Positions 3,215-28,503 of a stretch of 32,000 nt of DNA are shown piece by piece; the first letter of the stretch is position 1; each line of letters begins with the position of its first letter. This DNA comes from Pseudodesulfovibrio mercurii. Lineage in GTDB: Bacteria; Desulfobacterota; Desulfovibrionia; Desulfovibrionales; Desulfovibrionaceae. The translations under genes and the position numbers were made by a program. Below the pieces are notes generated by a model. The model saw nothing but the letters and a program-made list of their open reading frames with translations. It was not told the origin of the DNA and made no database searches. Location of the stretch: assembly GCF_000189295.2 (NCBI RefSeq), contig NC_016803.1, positions 1,950,001 to 1,982,000 on the forward strand. The letters are read 5' to 3'.

Positions 3215-3333
3215 ACCCCCATCCCCTCCTTTTCCCAAACTCTTTGTCGCCGCTTCGCGGGGAGGGTTGCAGCTTCACCGCCTTCGCCCAATAAACCGAC
3301 CGGAAGCCCCCTCTTCCCTCTTCCTGGAGCGTT

Positions 3334-3362
3334 TCGGGTGCGCAGCACCCGACAGCGGCTCT
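3334..3362 (+). repeat. Hairpin module TCGGGTGC-GCA-GCACCCGA followed by CAGCGGCTCT
   Basis: The same module occurs in inverted orientation at 28981-29011. Confidence 0.8.
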
Positions 3363-3400
3363 TCTTCGCCGCACCTCCGTCCTCGGAAGCCGCTTCACAC

Positions 3401-3430
3401 AAAAAAAGCCCGGTCTCCAAGAGACCGGGC
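3401..3430 (-). terminator. Rho-independent terminator downstream of roo
   Basis: Minus strand reads GCCCGGTCTC-TTG-GAGACCGGGC followed by T7, starting 25 nt after the roo stop. Confidence 0.85.
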
Positions 3431-3454
3431 CTTGATTGCATAATGAGAAGGAGA

Positions 3455-4657
3455 CTAGAAGCCCCACTTCGCCTTGATCGCGGCGGCGATCTGCTTGCCC
3501 TGCTCGTAGCACTTGCCGAGCACTTCATGGTCGGGCACATACTGGTTCTTGACCGGCTCGACCATCTCCATGCCCATGTCCTCGAGCCACTGGGTCAGGA
3601 TCTTGACGCATTCGCCGGACCAGCCGAAGGAGCCCACGGCGGAACCGATCTTGTTCTGGGGGCGCAGACCCTTCATGTAGGTCAGCATGTCGCCCATGAG
3701 CGGCAGGATGCCGTTGTTGTGGGTCGGGGACCCGACGACCACGGCGGCCGCGTCGAAGACCTCGGCCATGACGTCGGAGTGGTGGTTGTTCTTCATGCAC
3801 ATGACGCGCACGGACACGCCCTCGTCGGCCAGGCCCGCGGCGACGGCCTCGGCCATCTTCTCGGTGGAGTGCCACATGGTGTCGTAGACGATGACCGCCT
3901 TGTTCTTGGGCTTCTGCTCGGCGTACCCCTGGTACGTCTCCATGACCCAGTTGCAGTCGTCGCCCCGGAAGAGCAGGCCGTGGTCCGGGCAGATGGTGTC
4001 GATCTCCAGCCCCATCTCCTTGATGGCGGCCAGGGTCTTGAGCACCACCGGGGAGTACGGCAGGACGATGTTGGCGTAGTAGTTGGCCATGAGCTCTTCC
4101 AACCGGTAGCGGTCCACCTGGTCGGCCCAGCGCTCGGAAGTGGCCCAGTTCTGGCCGAAGGCGTCGTTGGTGAAGACGATCTTGTCCTCCGGGCAGTAGG
4201 TCAGCATGGAATCGGGCCAGTGCAGCATGCGGGTCTCGACAAAGGAGAGGGTCCGCGCGCCGATCTTGATCTCGGTGCCGGTGGGCACGACCTCCACGGG
4301 CCAGTCCGTGTACTTGAAGTGGGCCTTCATGGCCTTCTGGCCCATGGGCGAGGTGTAAACCTTCTCGGGCTGGTATTTCTCCACGACCTTGGCCAGGCAG
4401 CCGGAGTGGTCGGGCTCGAGGTGGTTGGCCACCACGTAGTCGATCTTCCGGTCGCCGAGCACCTGGGCGATGTTGCACTGCAGGGTGCCCCAGAATCTCT
4501 CGTCCACGGTATCGATCAGGGTCACCTTCTCGTCCACGATCAGAAAATTATTGTAGGTGGTGCCCTTGTGCGCCTTGGAATAGCCGTGGAAGTCGCGACG
4601 GTTCCAGTCCACCGCGCCCAGCCAGTAAATGCCCTTCTTGATTTCAACAGGTCTCAT
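3455..4657 (-). CDS. roo: Rubredoxin:oxygen oxidoreductase (flavodiiron protein, class A)
   Basis: Similar from end to end to my memory of D. gigas ROO: DWNxRDFHGY, HLEPDHSG, MLHWPDSM, WHSTEKMA, GSPTHNNGILP, GSFGWSGE. ATG at 4657 has GGAGAAG 6 nt upstream, so I prefer it to the GTG at 4669 in the ORF track. Confidence 0.93.
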   Translation of the reverse strand: MRPVEIKKGIYWLGAVDWNRRDFHGYSKAHKGTTYNNFLIVDEKVTLIDTVDERFWGTLQCNIAQVLGDRKIDYVVANHLEPDHSGCLAKVVEKYQPEKVYTSPMGQKAMKAHFKYTDWPVEVVPTGTEIKIGARTLSFVETRMLHWPDSMLTYCPEDKIVFTNDAFGQNWATSERWADQVDRYRLEELMANYYANIVLPYSPVVLKTLAAIKEMGLEIDTICPDHGLLFRGDDCNWVMETYQGYAEQKPKNKAVIVYDTMWHSTEKMAEAVAAGLADEGVSVRVMCMKNNHHSDVMAEVFDAAAVVVGSPTHNNGILPLMGDMLTYMKGLRPQNKIGSAVGSFGWSGECVKILTQWLEDMGMEMVEPVKNQYVPDHEVLGKCYEQGKQIAAAIKAKWGF

Positions 4658-4696
4658 GGTCTTCTCCACATTGAGCGGTTGCTCAACCGCTATGGT

Positions 4697-4730
4697 AAAA
4701 AAAGGAGCGCGAACCGTGGGTGCGCGCTCC
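4697..4730 (-). terminator. Rho-independent terminator between rubredoxin ORF and roo
   Basis: Minus strand reads GGAGCGCG-(11-nt loop)-CGCGCTCC followed by T7. A second 7-bp hairpin (4674-4691) sits just before the roo SD. Confidence 0.7.
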
Positions 4731-4753
4731 CTGGCCGCTGGTCGGGCCGAAAA

Positions 4754-4915
4754 TTAACCCTCGGGTACGAAGCTGTCCTTGCCCGCACCACAGACCGGAC
4801 AGGTCCAGTCGTCCGGCAGGTCCTCAAACTTGGTCCCGGCCGGGATGTCGGCATCGGAATCACCCTCGGCGGGGTCGTAAACATAGCCACAAATCTCGCA
4901 CACGTATTTCTGCAT
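4754..4915 (-). CDS. rub: Alternative product: stand-alone 53-aa canonical rubredoxin from an internal start
   Basis: The internal ATG at 4915 is preceded by AAGGAG with a 9-nt spacer. The 53-aa length is that of a classical Desulfovibrio rubredoxin. Confidence 0.45.
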
Positions 4916-5203
4916 GGGATCGGTCTCCTTTTGGACTTGTATTTTTGCAGCAGCGGCGGCCGCTGTCAACTTCTTGGGGTCGGTTTCAACGGGCAATTCA
5001 CAATCCGTCCGGGTCGAACCCGGACCGGCCAGGGGGCGGAAACACTTCTTGGTGCCCCCGCAGATGGGACAGCGCCAGTCGTCCGGCAGGTCCTCGAACC
5101 GGGTGCCCTTGGGGATCTTGCCCTTCCGGTCGCCCTTGTCCGGGTTGTAGATATAGCCGCAGTTCACGGTTTGGCACTGATACATCTCTTCGGGCAGGGC
5201 CAT
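4754..5203 (-). CDS. rub: Tandem rubredoxin ORF: N-terminal CX4C...CX2C (type-II-like) rubredoxin domain, 38-aa linker, C-terminal canonical rubredoxin
   Basis: A single 149-aa ORF with no in-frame stop. Domain 1 is [14 protein letters not shown]...[10 protein letters not shown]. Domain 2 is [12 protein letters not shown]...[22 protein letters not shown] lies upstream of the ATG at 5203. Confidence 0.65.
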
Positions 5204-5219
5204 GTCGCCTCCCTGGGGG

Positions 5220-5247
5220 AAAAGGGGCGGGCCTTGCGGCCCACCCC
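5220..5247 (-). terminator. Terminator/attenuator-like hairpin between dfx and the rubredoxin ORF
   Basis: Minus strand reads GGGGTGGGCC-GCAA-GGCCCGCCCC (one G-T wobble) followed by TTTT then C-run. The short T tract makes this weaker than the other terminators. Confidence 0.4.
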
Positions 5248-5295
5248 GGGGTGTCTCTCACGCGCGCCCTGCGGCGTCGCGGCACAGGGGATCGC

Positions 5296-5685
5296 CTACG
5301 CGGAGGCGGTCCACAGACCGTGAATGTTGCAGTACTCGCGGGCCTTGAGCGGGCCGGACAGGCCGCAGATGCAGAATTCGGCCTCGGGCTTCTCGCCGGG
5401 CTTGAGCATCTTGGTCAGGACCACGTCGCCCACCTGGAGCTCGATCCACTCGATGTAGTGCTTCTCCTCCATGGGATGGGCCACGGAACCGACCTTGACG
5501 GTGACCTTGTCGCCGTCCTTCTCGATGACGGGGACGTGCTTTTCCTTGGCGGCGTCCACAGTGTTTTCGGTCATCTGGACCATCTCCTCGCCGCAGCAGA
5601 CCAGGCTGCCGCCGCCTTCGTGAATGGCCATGACGATGTTGCCGCAGATATTACACTTGTACACTTCGCCCAGTTTGATAGCCAT
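5296..5685 (-). CDS. dfx: Desulfoferrodoxin (2Fe superoxide reductase)
   Basis: N-terminal desulforedoxin motifs are CNICGN and LVCCGE. The neelaredoxin domain shows [28 protein letters not shown] and [16 protein letters not shown] lies upstream of the ATG. Confidence 0.93.
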
Positions 5686-5713
5686 GTCGAATCCTCCTTG
5701 GATGACGTAAAAA

Positions 5714-6286
5714 TTACCAGTTGGTGTCCTTGATCTCGAAATGGGCCTGGGGATGGTCGCAGGCCGGGCACTTCACGGGAGCGGTGGTGCCCCTGTGATT
5801 GTAACCGCAGTTCTGGCAGCGCCAGACGATCTCCTCGTCCTTGGAAAAGACGCGGTCGGTCTCGATGTTCTTGATGAGGGCCTTGTAGCGCTCCTCATGG
5901 TACCGCTCGGCCACGGCGATGTTCTCCATGACCGCGGCGATCTCGTTGAAACCCTCCTGGCGCGCGATCTTGGCGAACCCGGGGTACATCTCGGTGTTCT
6001 CCTCGTGCTCGCCGGCCGCGGCGGCCTTGAGGTTCTCCAGGGTGTTGCCGATGACCCCGGCGGGGAAGGTGCCGGATACCTCGGCGGTGCCGCCCTCCAG
6101 GAACTTGAACAACCGCTTGGCGTGTTCCTTCTCGTGTCCGGCGGTCTCCTCGAAAATCTTGGAAATCTGCACGTAGCCCTCTTTCTTGGCCACGCTGGCG
6201 TAGTAGGTATACCGGTTGCGGGCCTGGGACTCGCCGGTGAATGCATACATCAGGTTCTTCTCGGTCTGGGTTCCTTTCAGGGACAT
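5714..6286 (-). CDS. rbr: Rubrerythrin
   Basis: Ferritin-like diiron domain ([37 protein letters not shown]) plus a C-terminal rubredoxin-like CQNCG...CPACDHP. ATG at 6286 has AAGGAGG 5 nt upstream and gives 190 aa. I reject the 6334 start in the ORF track. Confidence 0.92.
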
Positions 6287-6446
6287 TATTCCTCCTTGTG
6301 GAATGGATCCTTGGTGTTCCGATTCAGATGCCACCGTACACGAAAACAGGGGGCTTGTCGCATTATTCCGTGAGAAGGTGTTGCGTCTTTCGTTCTTTCA
6401 TCGTTTATCCTGGCGGCGCATTGGCTTATTGCCAAGATGGGAATTA

Positions 6447-6475
6447 TTACTAATTATAAACCCGCTCCCTGTCAA
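6447..6475 (-). promoter_or_regulatory. Putative sigma70 promoter of rbr (TTGACA-N17-TAGTAA) overlapped by an AT-rich PerR/Fur-type box
   Basis: The minus strand has TTGACA (6475-6470), a 17-nt spacer and TAGTAA (6452-6447). The imperfect palindrome ATTATTA-C-TAATTAT (6443-6457) covers the -10. The perR promoter has the same architecture. Confidence 0.5.
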
Positions 6476-6496
6476 GCGATGTGCGGGCCATAGAAT

Positions 6497-6533
6497 CAAA
6501 AAATAAAGCCGGTTGCCCCGAGAGGCAACCGGC
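6497..6533 (-). terminator. Rho-independent terminator downstream of perR
   Basis: Minus strand reads GCCGGTTGCC-TCTCGG-GGCAACCGGC followed by TTTATTTTTTG. Confidence 0.85.
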
Positions 6534-6567
6534 CTTGCGCCGCGGATGCGGATATTTTCCGAAATGT

Positions 6568-6966
6568 CTATTGCCGCGCGGCCTGGCACTTGGGGCAGAT
6601 GCCCACGAATTCCACGTTGGTGGTCAGGATCTTGAAGCCGCCGGCGCAGCTCTCCGGGATGTCCGGGATGTCGATGTCGCACTCCACGTCCACCACGGCC
6701 GTGCAGATCTCGCAGCGGATGTGCGGATGCGGCTCAGGAGTGCCGTCGAACCGTTTCTGCTCGCCGGGCGCACCCAGCTTGAGGACCAGTCCCTTGGAGG
6801 ACAGGAACTCGAGATTCCGGTACACGGTGCCCAGGCTGATCCTGGGAATGATCTTGCGCACCATGTCGTAAACCTCGTCGGCCGTGGGGTGCGTCTTCAC
6901 TTTCCGCAACTCTTCCAATATCACTTTCCGCTGCTTGGAAAGCCTGAAACCCATTTCCTGAGCCAT
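6568..6966 (-). CDS. perR: Fur-family transcriptional regulator, probably peroxide-responsive PerR
   Basis: A winged-helix region (RKVILEEL...HPTADEVY...ISLGTVYRNLEFL) is followed by two CXXC pairs, CEIC and CPKC. ATG at 6966 has GGAGG 6 nt upstream. The PerR call comes from adjacency to rbr, as in D. vulgaris perR-rbr. Confidence 0.8.
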   Translation of the reverse strand: MAQEMGFRLSKQRKVILEELRKVKTHPTADEVYDMVRKIIPRISLGTVYRNLEFLSSKGLVLKLGAPGEQKRFDGTPEPHPHIRCEICTAVVDVECDIDIPDIPESCAGGFKILTTNVEFVGICPKCQAARQ

Positions 6967-6991
6967 GGACGTCCTCCATATTTGATAACAA

Positions 6992-7020
6992 TTACTATTC
7001 CCCTGGTCCATTCTTGTCAA
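6992..7020 (-). promoter_or_regulatory. Putative sigma70 promoter of perR (TTGACA-N17-TAGTAA) with overlapping AT-rich operator-like sequence
   Basis: The minus strand has TTGACA (7020-7015), a 17-nt spacer and TAGTAA (6997-6992). GAATAGTAATTGTTATCAAAT spans the -10 and the likely start site. Confidence 0.5.
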
Positions 7021-7163
7021 GAGGAATCCGTGCAGGCGGAATCATGGCGTATTAGCCCAGAAAACAAAATACTGCAAATGGTCCGGTTGTGTCGACCGCA
7101 GTACCTTTGATTTGCTGGACAAGTTACGCCCGTCACGGACGGCGCGCCGCGCCCGGAGCAGGG

Positions 7164-7189
7164 AAAAGGGCCCGGCCGAAGCCGGGCCC
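7164..7189 (-). terminator. Rho-independent terminator downstream of the MCP gene
   Basis: Minus strand reads GGGCCCGGC-TTCG-GCCGGGCCC followed by TTTT. Confidence 0.75.
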
Positions 7190-7206
7190 CGTCATGCGTT
7201 GGGCCG

Positions 7207-9228
7207 CTAGTCGCGGAACTTGGAAACCAGTTCGGCCAGTTCCCCGGCCAGTTCCGAGACCTCCTGGATACCCCGGTTGGACTCGCGGATGCCGGACAGG
7301 ACCTCCTGGGAGAGGTGGTTGATCTGGGTCACGCGCGTGTTGATCTCGTCCGAGGTGGAGGACTGCTGTTCCGCCGCGGTGGCGATGCCGTTGACCATGT
7401 CGGCGATGGAGTTGGAGTGCCTGACGATCTCGTCGAGCACGCCGCCCGCCTCCTGGGCCATGCCCGAGGTGTTCAGGACCCGCTTCTTGGCGGTGTCCAT
7501 CTCCTTGACCACGTCCGTGGTGGACTGCTGGATGAGCGAGATGGCCCCCTCCACCTCCTTGGTGGCGTCCATGGTCTTCTCGGCCAGCTTGCGGACCTCG
7601 TCCGCGACCACGGCGAAGCCTCGGCCGGCCTCGCCCGCGCGGGCCGCCTCGATGGCCGCGTTGAGCGCCAGCAGGTTGGTCTGGTCCGCGATGTCGTTGA
7701 TCACGGCCATGACCTTGCCGATGTTCTCGGCCCGACTGGACAGGGAGGCCAGAGCCTCGGCCAGGTGTTCGGTGATGTCGGCCACGGAGTTGATCTCCTC
7801 CACGGTCTTGCCCACCACCACGCCGCCCGAGGCGGCCACCTTGTTGGCCTGGTCCGAGGCCTCGGCGGTCTCGGCGGCGTTCTTGGCCACCTCCAGCACC
7901 GTGGCGTTCATCTCCTCCATGGCCGTGGCCACCTGGCTGGTCTGGTCGGCGGTGGTGTCCACCCCGCTGGCCAGCTGGTCCATCCGGGTGGACAGCACGT
8001 TGGAGGCCTCGTTGAGCCTGTTGGCCACCTGGGTGACCTCGTTGGCCACTTCCAGGAGGCTCTGGCGCTGGAGTTCGATGCTCTTCTTGTCCTCCTCCTC
8101 GCGGGTCAGGTCGATGAGCACGCAGATGACGCCCACGGTCTCACCCTCGGCGTCCTTGAGCGGCGAGGCCTCGAACAGGAGCGGGAAGGTGGTGCCGTCC
8201 CGGCGGGTGAACAGGAAACGCCCGTTGAGGGGTTCGCCCAGGGCGATGACCTCGCCCGCGTTGCAGGCGGAACCGTCCTCGGACTCGCAGGCGAAAACCT
8301 CGGCCACGGCACGGCCCTTGAGCTCGTCCTCGGTCAGGTCCAGGATGGCCTGGAGGGGCGGGTTGACGAATTGCAGAGTCTGTTTGGCGTCGGTCACGAA
8401 CAGCGGGACCACGATGCCGCCGAGTACGCTCTGGTTGTATTCGAGCTGGTCCTTGATCTGGTTGACCATGGCCCCCAGGTAGCGGGACAGGGAGCCGAGC
8501 TCGTCGGACCCGGACACGGTGAACTGGGCGTCCAGGTTGCCGTGGGCCACGTCCTTGGCCGTGGTGGCGATGGAGGTGATGCGGTTGACGATGGCCTTGC
8601 GCATGAAGATGATCAGCGCGGCCAGCAGGGCCAGGACCCCGAGCAGGGAGATGCCCGCGGACTTGAACTGGTTGTCCTTGAGCGCGCCGTACTGCGGGCT
8701 GATGTCCACGGCCACGACCATGGCCCCGAGAATCTCCCGGCTGCGTCCATGGCAGTGGTAGCAGAACGGGTTGTTCCCGATGGACTTGACCTCCACGAAG
8801 TGGCGCTTGCCGCCGACCTCCTCCATCTTGCCCTCGGCCACCTTCTCCTCGAGCCCCCGGGCCACAAGGTCGGGCAGTCCGGCCTCGGGCATGACCTCGA
8901 AGATCTTCTTGCGCTCGGCCTCGGTCTCCGTGGAATAGGTGATCTCGCCCTTGTAGTCGGTCAGGTAGACCTGGATGTCCGGATAGCGCTCGGCCATCTG
9001 GAGGAACTTGATCTCCGTGCCCTCGTTGTCGCCCTTGGCCATGGGGTCCTCGATGGCGATGTAGAGCATGTCCGCCACCCGCTCCGCGGCCACGGCCACC
9101 TCATGCAGGGTGTGGTCCTTGGTCGTGATGGAGGTGTAGGCGAACAGCCCGGCAAAGGCCAGGATGGTCAGCAGGGACGAGAGCAGGATGAGTTTGACGC
9201 CCAGCGAGCGCGTGATGAAATTGTCCAT
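7207..9228 (-). CDS. dcrA: Methyl-accepting chemotaxis protein with periplasmic c-type haem motif, HAMP and cytoplasmic PAS domain (DcrA-like)
   Basis: Two TM segments flank a roughly 170-aa periplasmic domain carrying CYHCH (nt 8749-8763). After TM2 comes a HAMP-like segment, then a PAS-like segment. The C-terminal MCP signalling domain includes EQTNLLALNAAIEAARAGEAGRGFAVVADEVRKLAE. The size (673 aa) and haem motif resemble D. vulgaris DcrA. Confidence 0.85.
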   Translation of the reverse strand: MDNFITRSLGVKLILLSSLLTILAFAGLFAYTSITTKDHTLHEVAVAAERVADMLYIAIEDPMAKGDNEGTEIKFLQMAERYPDIQVYLTDYKGEITYSTETEAERKKIFEVMPEAGLPDLVARGLEEKVAEGKMEEVGGKRHFVEVKSIGNNPFCYHCHGRSREILGAMVVAVDISPQYGALKDNQFKSAGISLLGVLALLAALIIFMRKAIVNRITSIATTAKDVAHGNLDAQFTVSGSDELGSLSRYLGAMVNQIKDQLEYNQSVLGGIVVPLFVTDAKQTLQFVNPPLQAILDLTEDELKGRAVAEVFACESEDGSACNAGEVIALGEPLNGRFLFTRRDGTTFPLLFEASPLKDAEGETVGVICVLIDLTREEEDKKSIELQRQSLLEVANEVTQVANRLNEASNVLSTRMDQLASGVDTTADQTSQVATAMEEMNATVLEVAKNAAETAEASDQANKVAASGGVVVGKTVEEINSVADITEHLAEALASLSSRAENIGKVMAVINDIADQTNLLALNAAIEAARAGEAGRGFAVVADEVRKLAEKTMDATKEVEGAISLIQQSTTDVVKEMDTAKKRVLNTSGMAQEAGGVLDEIVRHSNSIADMVNGIATAAEQQSSTSDEINTRVTQINHLSQEVLSGIRESNRGIQEVSELAGELAELVSKFRD

Positions 9229-27114: not shown

Positions 27115-28503
27115 CTACCACCCCTTACCGGGGTTCATGATCTCGTGGGGGTCGAAGACGCGGCGCACGGTCTCCATGAAATGGAGCTGGTCCGCGCCGA
27201 GCTGCTCGGGCACGAAGGAGGCCTTGGTCAGGCCGGTGCCGTGCTCGCCCGAGATGGTCCCGCCCAGTTCCACGGCGGCCCGGAAGAGCCGCTCCTTGAC
27301 CTGGTGGGCGGCGCGGACCTCCTCGGGGTGGGCCGCGTCGTGCATGATGTTGGTGTGGATGTTGCCGTCGCCCAGGTGGCCGTAGCAGAGCACGGGCAGC
27401 CCGGCGTCGGCCCCGGCCTTTTGGGCGATGCGCACCAGCTCGGGCACGCGGCCGCGCGGCACGGCCAGGTCCTCGGAAAGCTTGTCGGGCCGGAGCCGGT
27501 AGGAGCCGGGCGAGATGTCCCGGCGGGCGGCCCAGACCGCTTCCTCGGCCTCGCCCTCGCCCACCTCCAGGGAGACCGGCCCCACGGCCGCAAGCGCCGC
27601 CTCGAGCCGTCGGATCTCGGCGGCCACGCCCTCGGCCGTGCCGTCGAACTTGAAGAGCAGCGCGGCCTGGGCCTGCGGGGCCAGGGGGATGTCGCCGCCC
27701 AGGCGCACGGCCTTGATGGTGGTCACGTCCATGAACTCGCAGGCGCAGGGCAGGAGCCCGGCCCCGAAGACGGCCATGGCCCCGTTCATGGCCCCGTCCA
27801 GGTCGGCGAAGCCCACCAGCACGGAGCTGGAGGTCTCGGGCAGGGGGATGAGCTTGACCGTGGCCCGGGTGATCAGGCCGAGCTTGCCGTCCGCGCCGAC
27901 AAAAAGGCGCTTCAGGTCCAGGCCGACCACGTCCTTCTGGGCCCGGCCGCCCATGGTCAGGACCTTGCCGCCGGGGAGCACGGCCTCGATGCCCAGGACC
28001 CAGTCGCGGGTCACGCCGTACTTAACGGCCCGCAGCCCGCCCGCGCAGGTGGAGATGTTCCCGCCCATGGTGGAGATCTTCACGCTGGCCGGGTCCGGGG
28101 GATAGAAGAGCTTCTTCGCGGCGCATGCCTGCTGGAAGTCCGCCGTGATCACGCCGGGCTCCACCTCGGCGGCGAAGTCGCGTTCGCTGATGTCGAGGAT
28201 GCGGTTCATGCGTAGCAGGGACACGGTCACGCCGTGCAGGAGCGGCACGGTGTTGCCCACCTGCCCGGTGGCCCGTGCGCGCGGATAGAGCGGCATGCGC
28301 TCGGCGTCGGCCCAGCGCAGGAGTTCGGCCGCCTGGTCCCGGCTCTCGGGCCGGACCACGGCCCAGGGCATGGACCGCTCGCGGCTCGCGTCCGTGGAAA
28401 AGGCGTTCATTTCCTCGGTGTCGAGGACGCACCCGTCGCCGGGGAAGAGATCGGTCAGGAACGCCCGGTGGGCGTCTGTCAGGGAGGTGGCGTAATTCGG
28501 CAT
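27115..28503 (-). CDS. glcD: FAD-linked oxidase, GlcD-type (probable D-lactate dehydrogenase)
   Basis: FAD-binding PCMH domain shows PWAVVRPES...PRARATGQVGNTVP. The C-terminal oxidase domain shows GTISGEHGTGLTK and FDPHEIMNPGK. Pairing with a GlcF-like Fe-S subunit matches the Desulfovibrio Dld-II arrangement. Confidence 0.88.
   Translation of the reverse strand: MPNYATSLTDAHRAFLTDLFPGDGCVLDTEEMNAFSTDASRERSMPWAVVRPESRDQAAELLRWADAERMPLYPRARATGQVGNTVPLLHGVTVSLLRMNRILDISERDFAAEVEPGVITADFQQACAAKKLFYPPDPASVKISTMGGNISTCAGGLRAVKYGVTRDWVLGIEAVLPGGKVLTMGGRAQKDVVGLDLKRLFVGADGKLGLITRATVKLIPLPETSSSVLVGFADLDGAMNGAMAVFGAGLLPCACEFMDVTTIKAVRLGGDIPLAPQAQAALLFKFDGTAEGVAAEIRRLEAALAAVGPVSLEVGEGEAEEAVWAARRDISPGSYRLRPDKLSEDLAVPRGRVPELVRIAQKAGADAGLPVLCYGHLGDGNIHTNIMHDAAHPEEVRAAHQVKERLFRAAVELGGTISGEHGTGLTKASFVPEQLGADQLHFMETVRRVFDPHEIMNPGKGW

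Follow-up and report, generated by a model that had tools for sequence, protein, structure and literature searches.

Introduction

Rubredoxin is the common electron donor in the oxygen defence of sulfate reducers, in which it serves rubredoxin:oxygen oxidoreductase (ROO), superoxide reductase and rubrerythrin, and in its free form it is a known donor to desulfoferrodoxin (Dfx), rubrerythrin (Rbr) and ROO. A further kind, Rd-2 of Desulfovibrio desulfuricans ATCC 27774, was reportedly described by LeGall et al. in 1998 as a type-II rubredoxin. A two-domain rubredoxin is known from aerobic alkane oxidation, where AlkG of Pseudomonas putida GPo1 serves AlkB, and in-frame internal initiation is known to give short isoforms such as CheA-S, IF2-beta and ClpB-79. 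In the present study, we analysed a stretch of 32,000 nucleotides (nt) of Pseudodesulfovibrio mercurii (contig NC_016803.1, positions 1,950,001 to 1,982,000), hereafter the window, whose coordinates are used unless another locus is named. On its minus strand it contains an open reading frame (ORF; 4754..5203) that encodes two rubredoxin domains of different types.

In Desulfovibrio, Rub and Rdl are the common intermediary electron donors of the oxidative-stress enzymes (PMC545781), and in Shewanella conserved internal transcription start sites (TSSs) on the sense strand, with promoter motifs, drive protein expression (Shao et al. 2014, PMC4161247). Rdl and Rd-2 are separate proteins of 62-78 amino acids (aa), whereas the corresponding module of the window runs in frame into a canonical rubredoxin (Rd), and, as in AlkG, two rubredoxin domains and a linker are found on one chain. 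Comparison of the sequences demonstrates the architecture of this gene, the age and spread of the fusion, selection for an open frame, and selection on an internal ATG, its Shine-Dalgarno (SD) sequence and a -35 hexamer. From these we infer a dual-output gene, which would supply both a tethered Rdl-Rd protein and a free Rd; as regards the two products themselves, this is the reading towards which we lean, with some reserve.

Two Rubredoxin Modules in One Reading Frame

The ORF is complete and encodes 149 aa, from the ATG at 5203-5201 to the TAA at 4756-4754, and it is preceded by an SD sequence of its own (AGGGAGG, 5208..5214, minus strand; anti-SD duplex -11.1 kcal/mol). The Pfam family PF00301 matches it with 150.2 bits (cut-off 23) in two separate stretches. 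The first domain has the Cys ligands C10-QTVN-C15 ... C45-PI-C48 (CX4C...CX2C) and the second C102-EI-C105 ... C135-PV-C138 (CX2C...CX2C), and no stop codon lies between them; the preliminary description of this DNA, which had seen two rubredoxin types in one uninterrupted ORF, was therefore right on this point. In 43 aligned homologues the eight Cys do not vary, nor do Q9, Q11 and the tail F-x-P-L-x-G, while the linker is variable, and the Q-C-Q...N-C-G motif of domain 1 is invariant or nearly so across the family. The same 149-aa protein with the same neighbours was obtained in independent assemblies of two sequencing runs, and the heterotypic didomain rubredoxin is a real ORF.

Module 1 (residues 1-73 including a conserved tail; 4985..5203, minus strand) is a type-II (Rdl/Rd-2-like) rubredoxin by alignment and by its invariant Cys. 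It aligns over its whole length with PDB 8ITO_A, a stand-alone protein of 75 aa with the motif CQTVNC (E-value 1.8e-36), and the type-II spacing noticed earlier is confirmed both by the CX4C knuckle and by a stand-alone protein of P. hydrargyri (78 aa), which is 97% identical to domain 1 and annotated 'Rubredoxin-2'. Judged by its sequence, domain 1 has all the features of the type-II (Rdl/Rd-2) class, yet it is not a stand-alone protein of approx. 60-80 aa. Module 2 (residues 97-149; 4754..4915, minus strand) is a canonical 53-aa rubredoxin with CX2C...CX2C spacing; in the PDB it is matched best by the classical rubredoxins of Desulfovibrio and of clostridia (D. gigas Rd, 1E8J, E-value 6e-21).

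The linker between them had been taken as 38 residues, which is too long: because residues 1-73 align with the stand-alone 8ITO, residues 55-73 belong to module 1 and the linker comprises approx. residues 74-96 (4916..4984, minus strand). It is variable as protein and predicted to be disordered, and carries conserved nucleotide motifs, as seen from invariant third codon positions. AlphaFold2 (AF2), run on the 43-sequence alignment, gave two small domains with a predicted local distance difference test (pLDDT) of 75-85, values below 50 for residues 67-95, and a predicted template-modelling score (pTM) of 0.35. The model thus predicts a flexible tether, with no fixed mutual arrangement of the domains.

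Two additional cysteines are present in the tail of domain 1, Cys54 (5044-5042) and Cys67 (5005-5003). They are kept in Desulfovibrionaceae, in fused and stand-alone forms alike (including PDB 8ITO), and are replaced by Ala or other residues in Desulfobulbales; a disulfide or an additional ligand pair is possible. The G+C content at third codon positions (GC3) of the rubredoxin ORF is 0.76, compared with 0.82-0.94 in its neighbours, which fits constraints that act on the nucleotides, and the A-rich motifs of the linker and of the sequence following the internal ATG. The codon of Lys99 is AAA in 10 of 10 clade sequences in one set and in 16 of 18 in another.

Distribution and Age of the Fusion

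When 5.8 billion proteins were searched, 1,436 relatives were obtained. All of the top 120 cover both domains (93-100% coverage; 130-159 aa), and they include proteins of Pseudodesulfovibrio cashew, Desulfocapsa sulfexigens and one metagenome-assembled genome (MAG) of Dissulfuribacterales; the database name of the didomain relatives is plain 'rubredoxin'. When representatives at 50% identity were searched, the whole family was covered by a single one, P0023, and the family is therefore compact. A genome scan gave 80 loci, in a sample ranked in favour of same-frame gene pairs. Of these, 79 have both domains in the same frame, fused in 53 loci (counting the window and the two run assemblies identical to it) and separated by a stop codon in 26, in which the separate rd gene starts at the equivalent Met. 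A metagenome scan added 35 Rdl genes that stand alone and 16 split pairs whose frames differ, and as further close relatives it returned only two loci, L083 and L084. The comparison of orthologous loci suggested earlier, asking for a stop codon between the domains, thus has a clear result: fused and split forms both occur.

In a rough neighbour-joining (NJ) tree, the fused state fills one clade of Desulfovibrionaceae (Pseudodesulfovibrio, Salidesulfovibrio, Humidesulfovibrio and Desulfocurvus) and one of Desulfobulbales. Split forms fill a Desulfobacterales clade, with a few nested in the fused clades (L014 and L079/L081/L082), and the tree implies approx. 5-8 changes between the two states. 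An in-frame stop codon is present in 1 of 28 Desulfovibrionaceae linkers, compared with 21 in the +1 frame and 18 in the +2 frame; for the 35 Desulfobulbales linkers the corresponding numbers are 3, 12 and 25. These counts show that the linker frame is held open by selection. It had been suggested that the fusion might be recent, created by loss of the upstream stop codon; since the fused state fills whole clades in two orders and the frame is kept open, the sequences instead describe a fusion that is old and conserved, neither recent nor an assembly error.

One of the nested split forms, L014 (Desulfovibrionaceae bacterium CG1_02_65_16), has a TAG between the SD sequence (AAGGAGA) and the ATG of rd (approx. 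4240-4262 of that locus, GAAGGAGAATAGACGATG). The stop lies two codons ahead of the ATG, and all sister sequences are fused; on its sequence, a single codon toggles this locus between the fused and the split state, an arrangement suited to termination-reinitiation.

Other arrangements of the two modules were also seen. In the reverse-order fusions P0274 (120 aa) and P0275 (124 aa), a canonical rubredoxin is followed by a linker and then by a CX4C Rdl-type domain, which itself begins with Met (M-x-M-[WY]-QCQ). Some Desulfobulbales have tandem Rdl genes, an additional stand-alone Rdl being located directly upstream of the fused (or second) Rdl gene (L064 at 391, L067 at 580 and 803, L068 at 196, L087 at 1527).

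The Internal Start Codon and Its Shine-Dalgarno Sequence

The canonical rubredoxin of the window begins with an in-frame ATG (Met97; 4913..4915, minus strand), and an SD-like AAGGAG (4925..4930, minus strand; codons Lys92-Glu93) precedes it at a distance of 9 nt, the spacer between 4930-4925 and 4915-4913 being ACCGATCCC. Both had been pointed out before; they are indeed present, and the comparative evidence indicates that they are under selection. The anti-SD duplex at the internal start reaches -8.7 kcal/mol, a better match than expected by chance: among 171 in-frame ATGs inside the putative genes of the window, just 2.9% have a duplex of this strength. Of the 51 fused loci analysed, 48 begin domain 2 with Met and keep an SD-like core ahead of this ATG. 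Over the loci, the anti-SD duplex of the segment from 18 to 4 nt upstream of the domain 2 ATG has a median of -7.7 kcal/mol, compared with -2.2 kcal/mol for the other in-frame ATGs (1,765) inside long ORFs of these loci. In 80% of the loci the domain 2 ATG belongs to the strongest 5% of internal ATGs (median percentile 1.8%), and in most loci its SD-like window is the best or nearly the best (top 5%) of its own ORF.

The clade linkers have no common amino-acid sequence (KETDPM, AGETTM, SGSTGTM, KGTENGM, SEGGNM and others), and all of them encode an SD core of AGGAG, GGGAG or AAGGA; the core is likewise kept within the otherwise variable linkers of three other clades. In the SGSTGT clade alone, the codons TCA GGG AGT significantly favour the SD sequence over synonymous reshuffles (p 0.002-0.01). 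Third codon positions are largely randomised, with a mean pairwise identity of 0.53. In a nucleotide alignment of 16 sequences of the Pseudodesulfovibrio clade, which extends from 130 nt ahead of the ORF to 200 nt beyond it, only 10 of 149 third positions are invariant, seven of them in degenerate codons, and five of these seven are found in the linker (Leu79, Thr80, Ala85, Lys92 and Glu93). AGGAG (5 nt) is the joint second-longest invariant run, tied with GAAGA near the 5' end.

Three fused lineages from different clades have no ATG at this position, L038 (Ser), L051 (Gly) and L068 (Ala), and their SD-like signal is nil (+0.2, +0.4 and +1.2 kcal/mol). This joint loss is the strongest single argument for an internal start, and the comparison as a whole shows selection on the internal ATG and its SD sequence.

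A Promoter-Like Element in the Linker

Within the linker, a candidate -35 hexamer TTGACA (4964..4969, minus strand; codons Leu79-Thr80) is followed after 17 nt by a candidate extended -10 element, TGcAAAAAT (4941..4949, minus strand). In 3.9 kb, where the promoter scan found four sigma-70-like sites against 0.9 expected from shuffles, this site (TTGACA-17-AAAAAT with the upstream TG, 4969..4941; 10 of 12 matches) ranks first. TTGACA (4969-4964) is the longest invariant run of the 16-sequence alignment, and the codons used for Leu79 and Thr80 are both rare. The hexamer, the 17-nt spacing, the TG and an A at position 2 of the -10 element occur together in 15 of 17 clade members, with 22-25 nt from the end of the -10 element to the internal ATG. 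Conservation is therefore partial: the -35 hexamer, TG and spacing are kept, and the -10 hexamer is variable. From these alignments the -35 hexamer is shown to be under selection, and the linker apparently contains a candidate sigma-70-type promoter.

TTGACA occurs four times in the window, and two of these occurrences are the promoters of perR and rbr, with the same N17 layout; both have a PerR-box-like sequence, and none is present at the linker site. The fourth (28538-28504, minus strand) reads TTGACA-N17-TAGGCT and is followed after 6 nt by the ATG of a 462-aa ORF (27118-28503); it may be the promoter of a leaderless mRNA.

The same module can be seen outside coding DNA in P. hydrargyri and in the metagenome contig L084, where an additional rubredoxin gene of CPEC type was inserted after ...ELPVE(S/T)D (L169 3001-3705, i.e., P. 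hydrargyri LKAQ01000004.1; L084 1500-2320). The inserted gene encodes 54 aa in L169 and 56-60 aa in L084, depending on the choice of start, and has CPEC in its second knuckle. As an outcome, three separate rubredoxin genes stand ahead of roo instead of one fused gene, and the free-standing 53-aa rd is preceded by non-coding TTGACA-N17-TGcGAATAT and then by AAGGAG-N9-ATG. The break point coincides with the C-terminus of stand-alone Rdl proteins. On sequence grounds, this supports a model in which the fused gene consists of Rdl (approx. 75 aa), a translated rd control region (approx. 22 aa) and Rd.

Gene Neighbourhood

On the minus strand, the cluster consists of a Fur/PerR-family regulator, rubrerythrin, desulfoferrodoxin, the didomain ORF and a flavodiiron ROO, and the order MCP-Fur-Rbr-Dfx-didomain Rd-ROO is kept in the clade. 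The ORF does lie between dfx and roo, as had been proposed, with the desulfoferrodoxin (superoxide reductase) gene at 5296..5685 (minus strand; PF06397 and PF01880) and the rubredoxin:oxygen oxidoreductase-type flavodiiron gene at 3455..4657 (minus strand; Metallo-beta-lactamase/ODP and flavodoxin domains). The rubrerythrin gene is found at 5714..6286 (minus strand; domain match, length after gene calls in relatives) and the Fur-family (PerR-like) regulator gene at 6568..6966 (minus strand; domain match). The preliminary description gave correct coordinates for the rubredoxin ORF and was silent on its minus-strand orientation, on the candidate promoter in the linker and on the terminator-like hairpins that flank the ORF.

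In the mechanical ORF list, roo, rbr and perR span 3455-4669, 5714-6334 and 6568-7020, the listed GTG or TTG starts being located too far upstream; sequence conservation, together with gene calls made in relatives, points to ATG starts at 4657, 6286 and 6966, respectively. For roo, where the ORF tool lists GTG 4669, the ATGA at 4657-4654 is invariant in the 16-sequence alignment, and ATG 4657 is the likely start.

The first of the flanking hairpins follows dfx (5220..5247, minus strand), with a 10-bp GC stem, a GCAA loop and TTTT. A comparable hairpin is found in nearly all clade members, and it ends a few bases short of the SD sequence of the full-length ORF. The second stands after the rubredoxin ORF and before roo (4697..4730, minus strand; GGAGCGCG-11 nt-CGCGCTCC, T7); a GC hairpin with a T-run is conserved there in the clade, with differing stem sequences. 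An Rfam scan of 3300-7300 gave no match in the region of interest.

Upstream of rbr, TTGACA (6475-6470)-N17-TAGTAA is overlapped by a PerR-box-like sequence, TAGTAATAATTCCCA (region 6475-6440), and the same layout is repeated upstream of perR with TTGACA (7020-7015)-N17-TAGTAA and TAGTAATTGTTATCA (region 7020-6966). This arrangement of promoter and PerR-box-like sequence is also present in P. hydrargyri and L084, and the boxes resemble the PerR site given for D. vulgaris perR-rbr-rdl (PMC545781). A further, strong terminator-like hairpin of 14 pairs with a T-run separates perR from the rbr promoter (6536-6505, minus strand), so that perR probably forms a transcription unit of its own, in contrast to the perR-rbr-rdl operon of D. 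vulgaris.

Proposed Dual Output and Its Alternatives

We propose that the end of the linker is the former 5' control region of rd, which would now be translated. Transcripts from upstream that pass the hairpin after dfx would give the 16-kDa tethered Rdl-Rd; such a transcript would probably be PerR-controlled, coming from the rbr promoter with its PerR-box-like site. Initiation at the internal SD and ATG would give a free rubredoxin of 5.6 kDa, and the template could be either the long mRNA or an mRNA of approx. 250 nt reaching from the internal promoter to the hairpin after the ORF. The open frame suggests that the full-length output is selected, and the ATG, the SD sequence and the promoter of the clade suggest the same for a separate Rd output, so that both appear to be maintained.

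To go further, the linker may be an exapted control region, meaning that the promoter, ribosome-binding site (RBS) and start codon of rd were read through at fusion and still work, with two products under different control: tethered Rdl-Rd from the PerR-box-like rbr promoter and free Rd from a promoter with no such box. We offer this more specific proposal tentatively, as a possibility to which we would give slightly less than even weight. Were it true, the ratio of tethered to free protein would determine the distribution of electrons between ROO, superoxide reductase and rubrerythrin.

Several results weigh against these proposals. In the clade of the window itself, the reshuffling of synonymous codons gave no significant result (p 0.2-0.55; approx. 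0.5 for the window), because Lys-Glu in preferred codons already gives AAGGAG. We therefore rely on positional rank, third-position invariance and correlated loss, and the case for the internal SD sequence in the window is one of comparative conservation. The SD duplex is weaker in fused (-7.5 kcal/mol) than in split genes (-10.6 kcal/mol), its spacing is long (10-11 nt) in some Desulfobulbales, and the cross-locus statistics were computed without phylogenetic correction. The ratio of fused to split loci was rejected as a census, as the 80-locus sample is biased to same-frame pairs. With respect to the promoter, the -10 hexamer is poor or variable and its final T is absent in four clade members, and sigma-70-like sites upstream of rd are not enriched in other fused clades or in split loci; the promoter as a family-wide feature was rejected, being confined to the Pseudodesulfovibrio subclade. 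Finally, the insertion in P. hydrargyri and L084 appears recent, and the module kept there may partly reflect too little time for divergence. It follows that the insertion shows the module serving a separate gene, but adds little to the conservation argument.

The didomain protein could also be the single product, with the internal ATG, the SD-like sequence and TTGACA as ancestral leftovers or by-products of a linker rich in Gly, Glu and Lys. It is true that AAGGAG is simply Lys-Glu in preferred codons (p approx. 0.5 in the window), that linkers typically have this composition, and that the SD sites are weaker than in the split genes. Nevertheless, we consider a single product unlikely, since in an old fusion whose third positions are largely randomised (identity 0.53, with 10 of 149 invariant) AGGAG and TTGACA are invariant, the SD-like window is top-ranked in clades with differing linker amino acids, and ATG and SD were lost together in three independent lineages.

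Less likely still is that the conserved TTGACA is the site of another regulator, or part of an mRNA structure that gates the internal start, rather than a promoter. The weak -10 hexamer, which in several members has no final T, would agree with this, and by sequence reading the GC-rich spacer could fold into a small hairpin in some sequences. Against it stand the perfect -35 hexamer, the spacer of exactly 17 nt, the conserved TG and the conserved A as second base of the -10 element, which together follow the grammar of an extended -10 promoter; the perR and rbr promoters share TTGACA-N17, and their own -10 element (TAGTAA) also has no final T.

A third explanation, that the internal SD-like sequence is a translational pause for folding or iron binding of domain 1 and that the Met is kept for structural reasons, seems very improbable to us. 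SD-like sequences within ORFs have been proposed to pause ribosomes, which is contested, and the location exactly at the domain boundary would be suitable. However, an ATG (or GTG) always follows the sequence at a distance suited to initiation, and where the ATG is gone the sequence is gone too; split relatives use it as RBS for their separate rd gene, and the replacement of Met by Ser, Gly or Ala in three fused lineages shows that it is not structurally required. The correlated loss of ATG and SD would be expected of an initiation site, but not of a pause site, an effect of linker composition or a structural Met. It is hardly credible that an error of assembly or sequencing removed a stop or frameshift between two real genes, which would make the fusion artificial. 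We reject this on the spread of the fused form and on the two independent run assemblies with the identical ORF; the same open frame is found in over 50 further genomes and MAGs (some of them complete genomes), and the separate genes of the close relative P. hydrargyri (domain 1 97% identical) are due to the insertion of a whole gene and not to a point difference.

A fusion conserved in many Desulfovibrionaceae and Desulfobulbales suggests that the two rubredoxin types work together, and two hypotheses can be derived from it, electron hand-over within the chain or a shared docking partner. The locus also appears to be an unusually clean evolutionary case of a fusion that keeps the downstream RBS, start codon and apparently promoter within new coding sequence, for which relatives with split, inserted-gene and ATG- and SD-less forms are natural controls. 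If the linker is an exapted control region, the family would be a ready-made system for studying how downstream expression signals are retained or lost after gene fusion. As to annotation, the nested 53-aa product would be invisible to gene callers, and the genes are labelled simply 'rubredoxin'.

Comparison with Known Systems

A close single-domain counterpart by context is rdl of D. vulgaris, which is located in the same PerR/rubrerythrin setting as the ORF of the window (PMC545781). The type-II proteins Rdl and Rd-2 have the same CX4C...CX2C spacing as module 1, a likeness drawn via 8ITO and the 'Rubredoxin-2' of P. hydrargyri. The canonical Rd of Desulfovibrio, known from rbo-rub-roo and rd-roo units, is of the same 53-aa type as domain 2 and takes the same position between dfx and roo. 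Unlike such an Rd gene, domain 2 has its start codon, RBS and candidate promoter inside the upstream linker coding sequence, with no stop between. A literature search returned no description of an Rdl-Rd fusion and no mention of 8ITO, and the only two-domain rubredoxin it returned was AlkG. AlkG differs in being associated with alkB, whereas the genes described here stand beside dfx, rbr, roo and perR of anaerobes and their domains are of two types; the match of its C-terminal domain (1S24) to domain 2 (E-value 1e-13) is generic rubredoxin similarity.

With known internal-start genes and internal TSSs the locus shares an in-frame ATG with an SD sequence, a promoter-like element within coding sequence and genus-wide conservation. 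It differs from internal-start genes in that the nested unit appears to be a complete former gene (promoter, RBS, ORF and terminator) that was kept through the fusion, and, unlike those examples, the family has natural fused, split and start-less variants.

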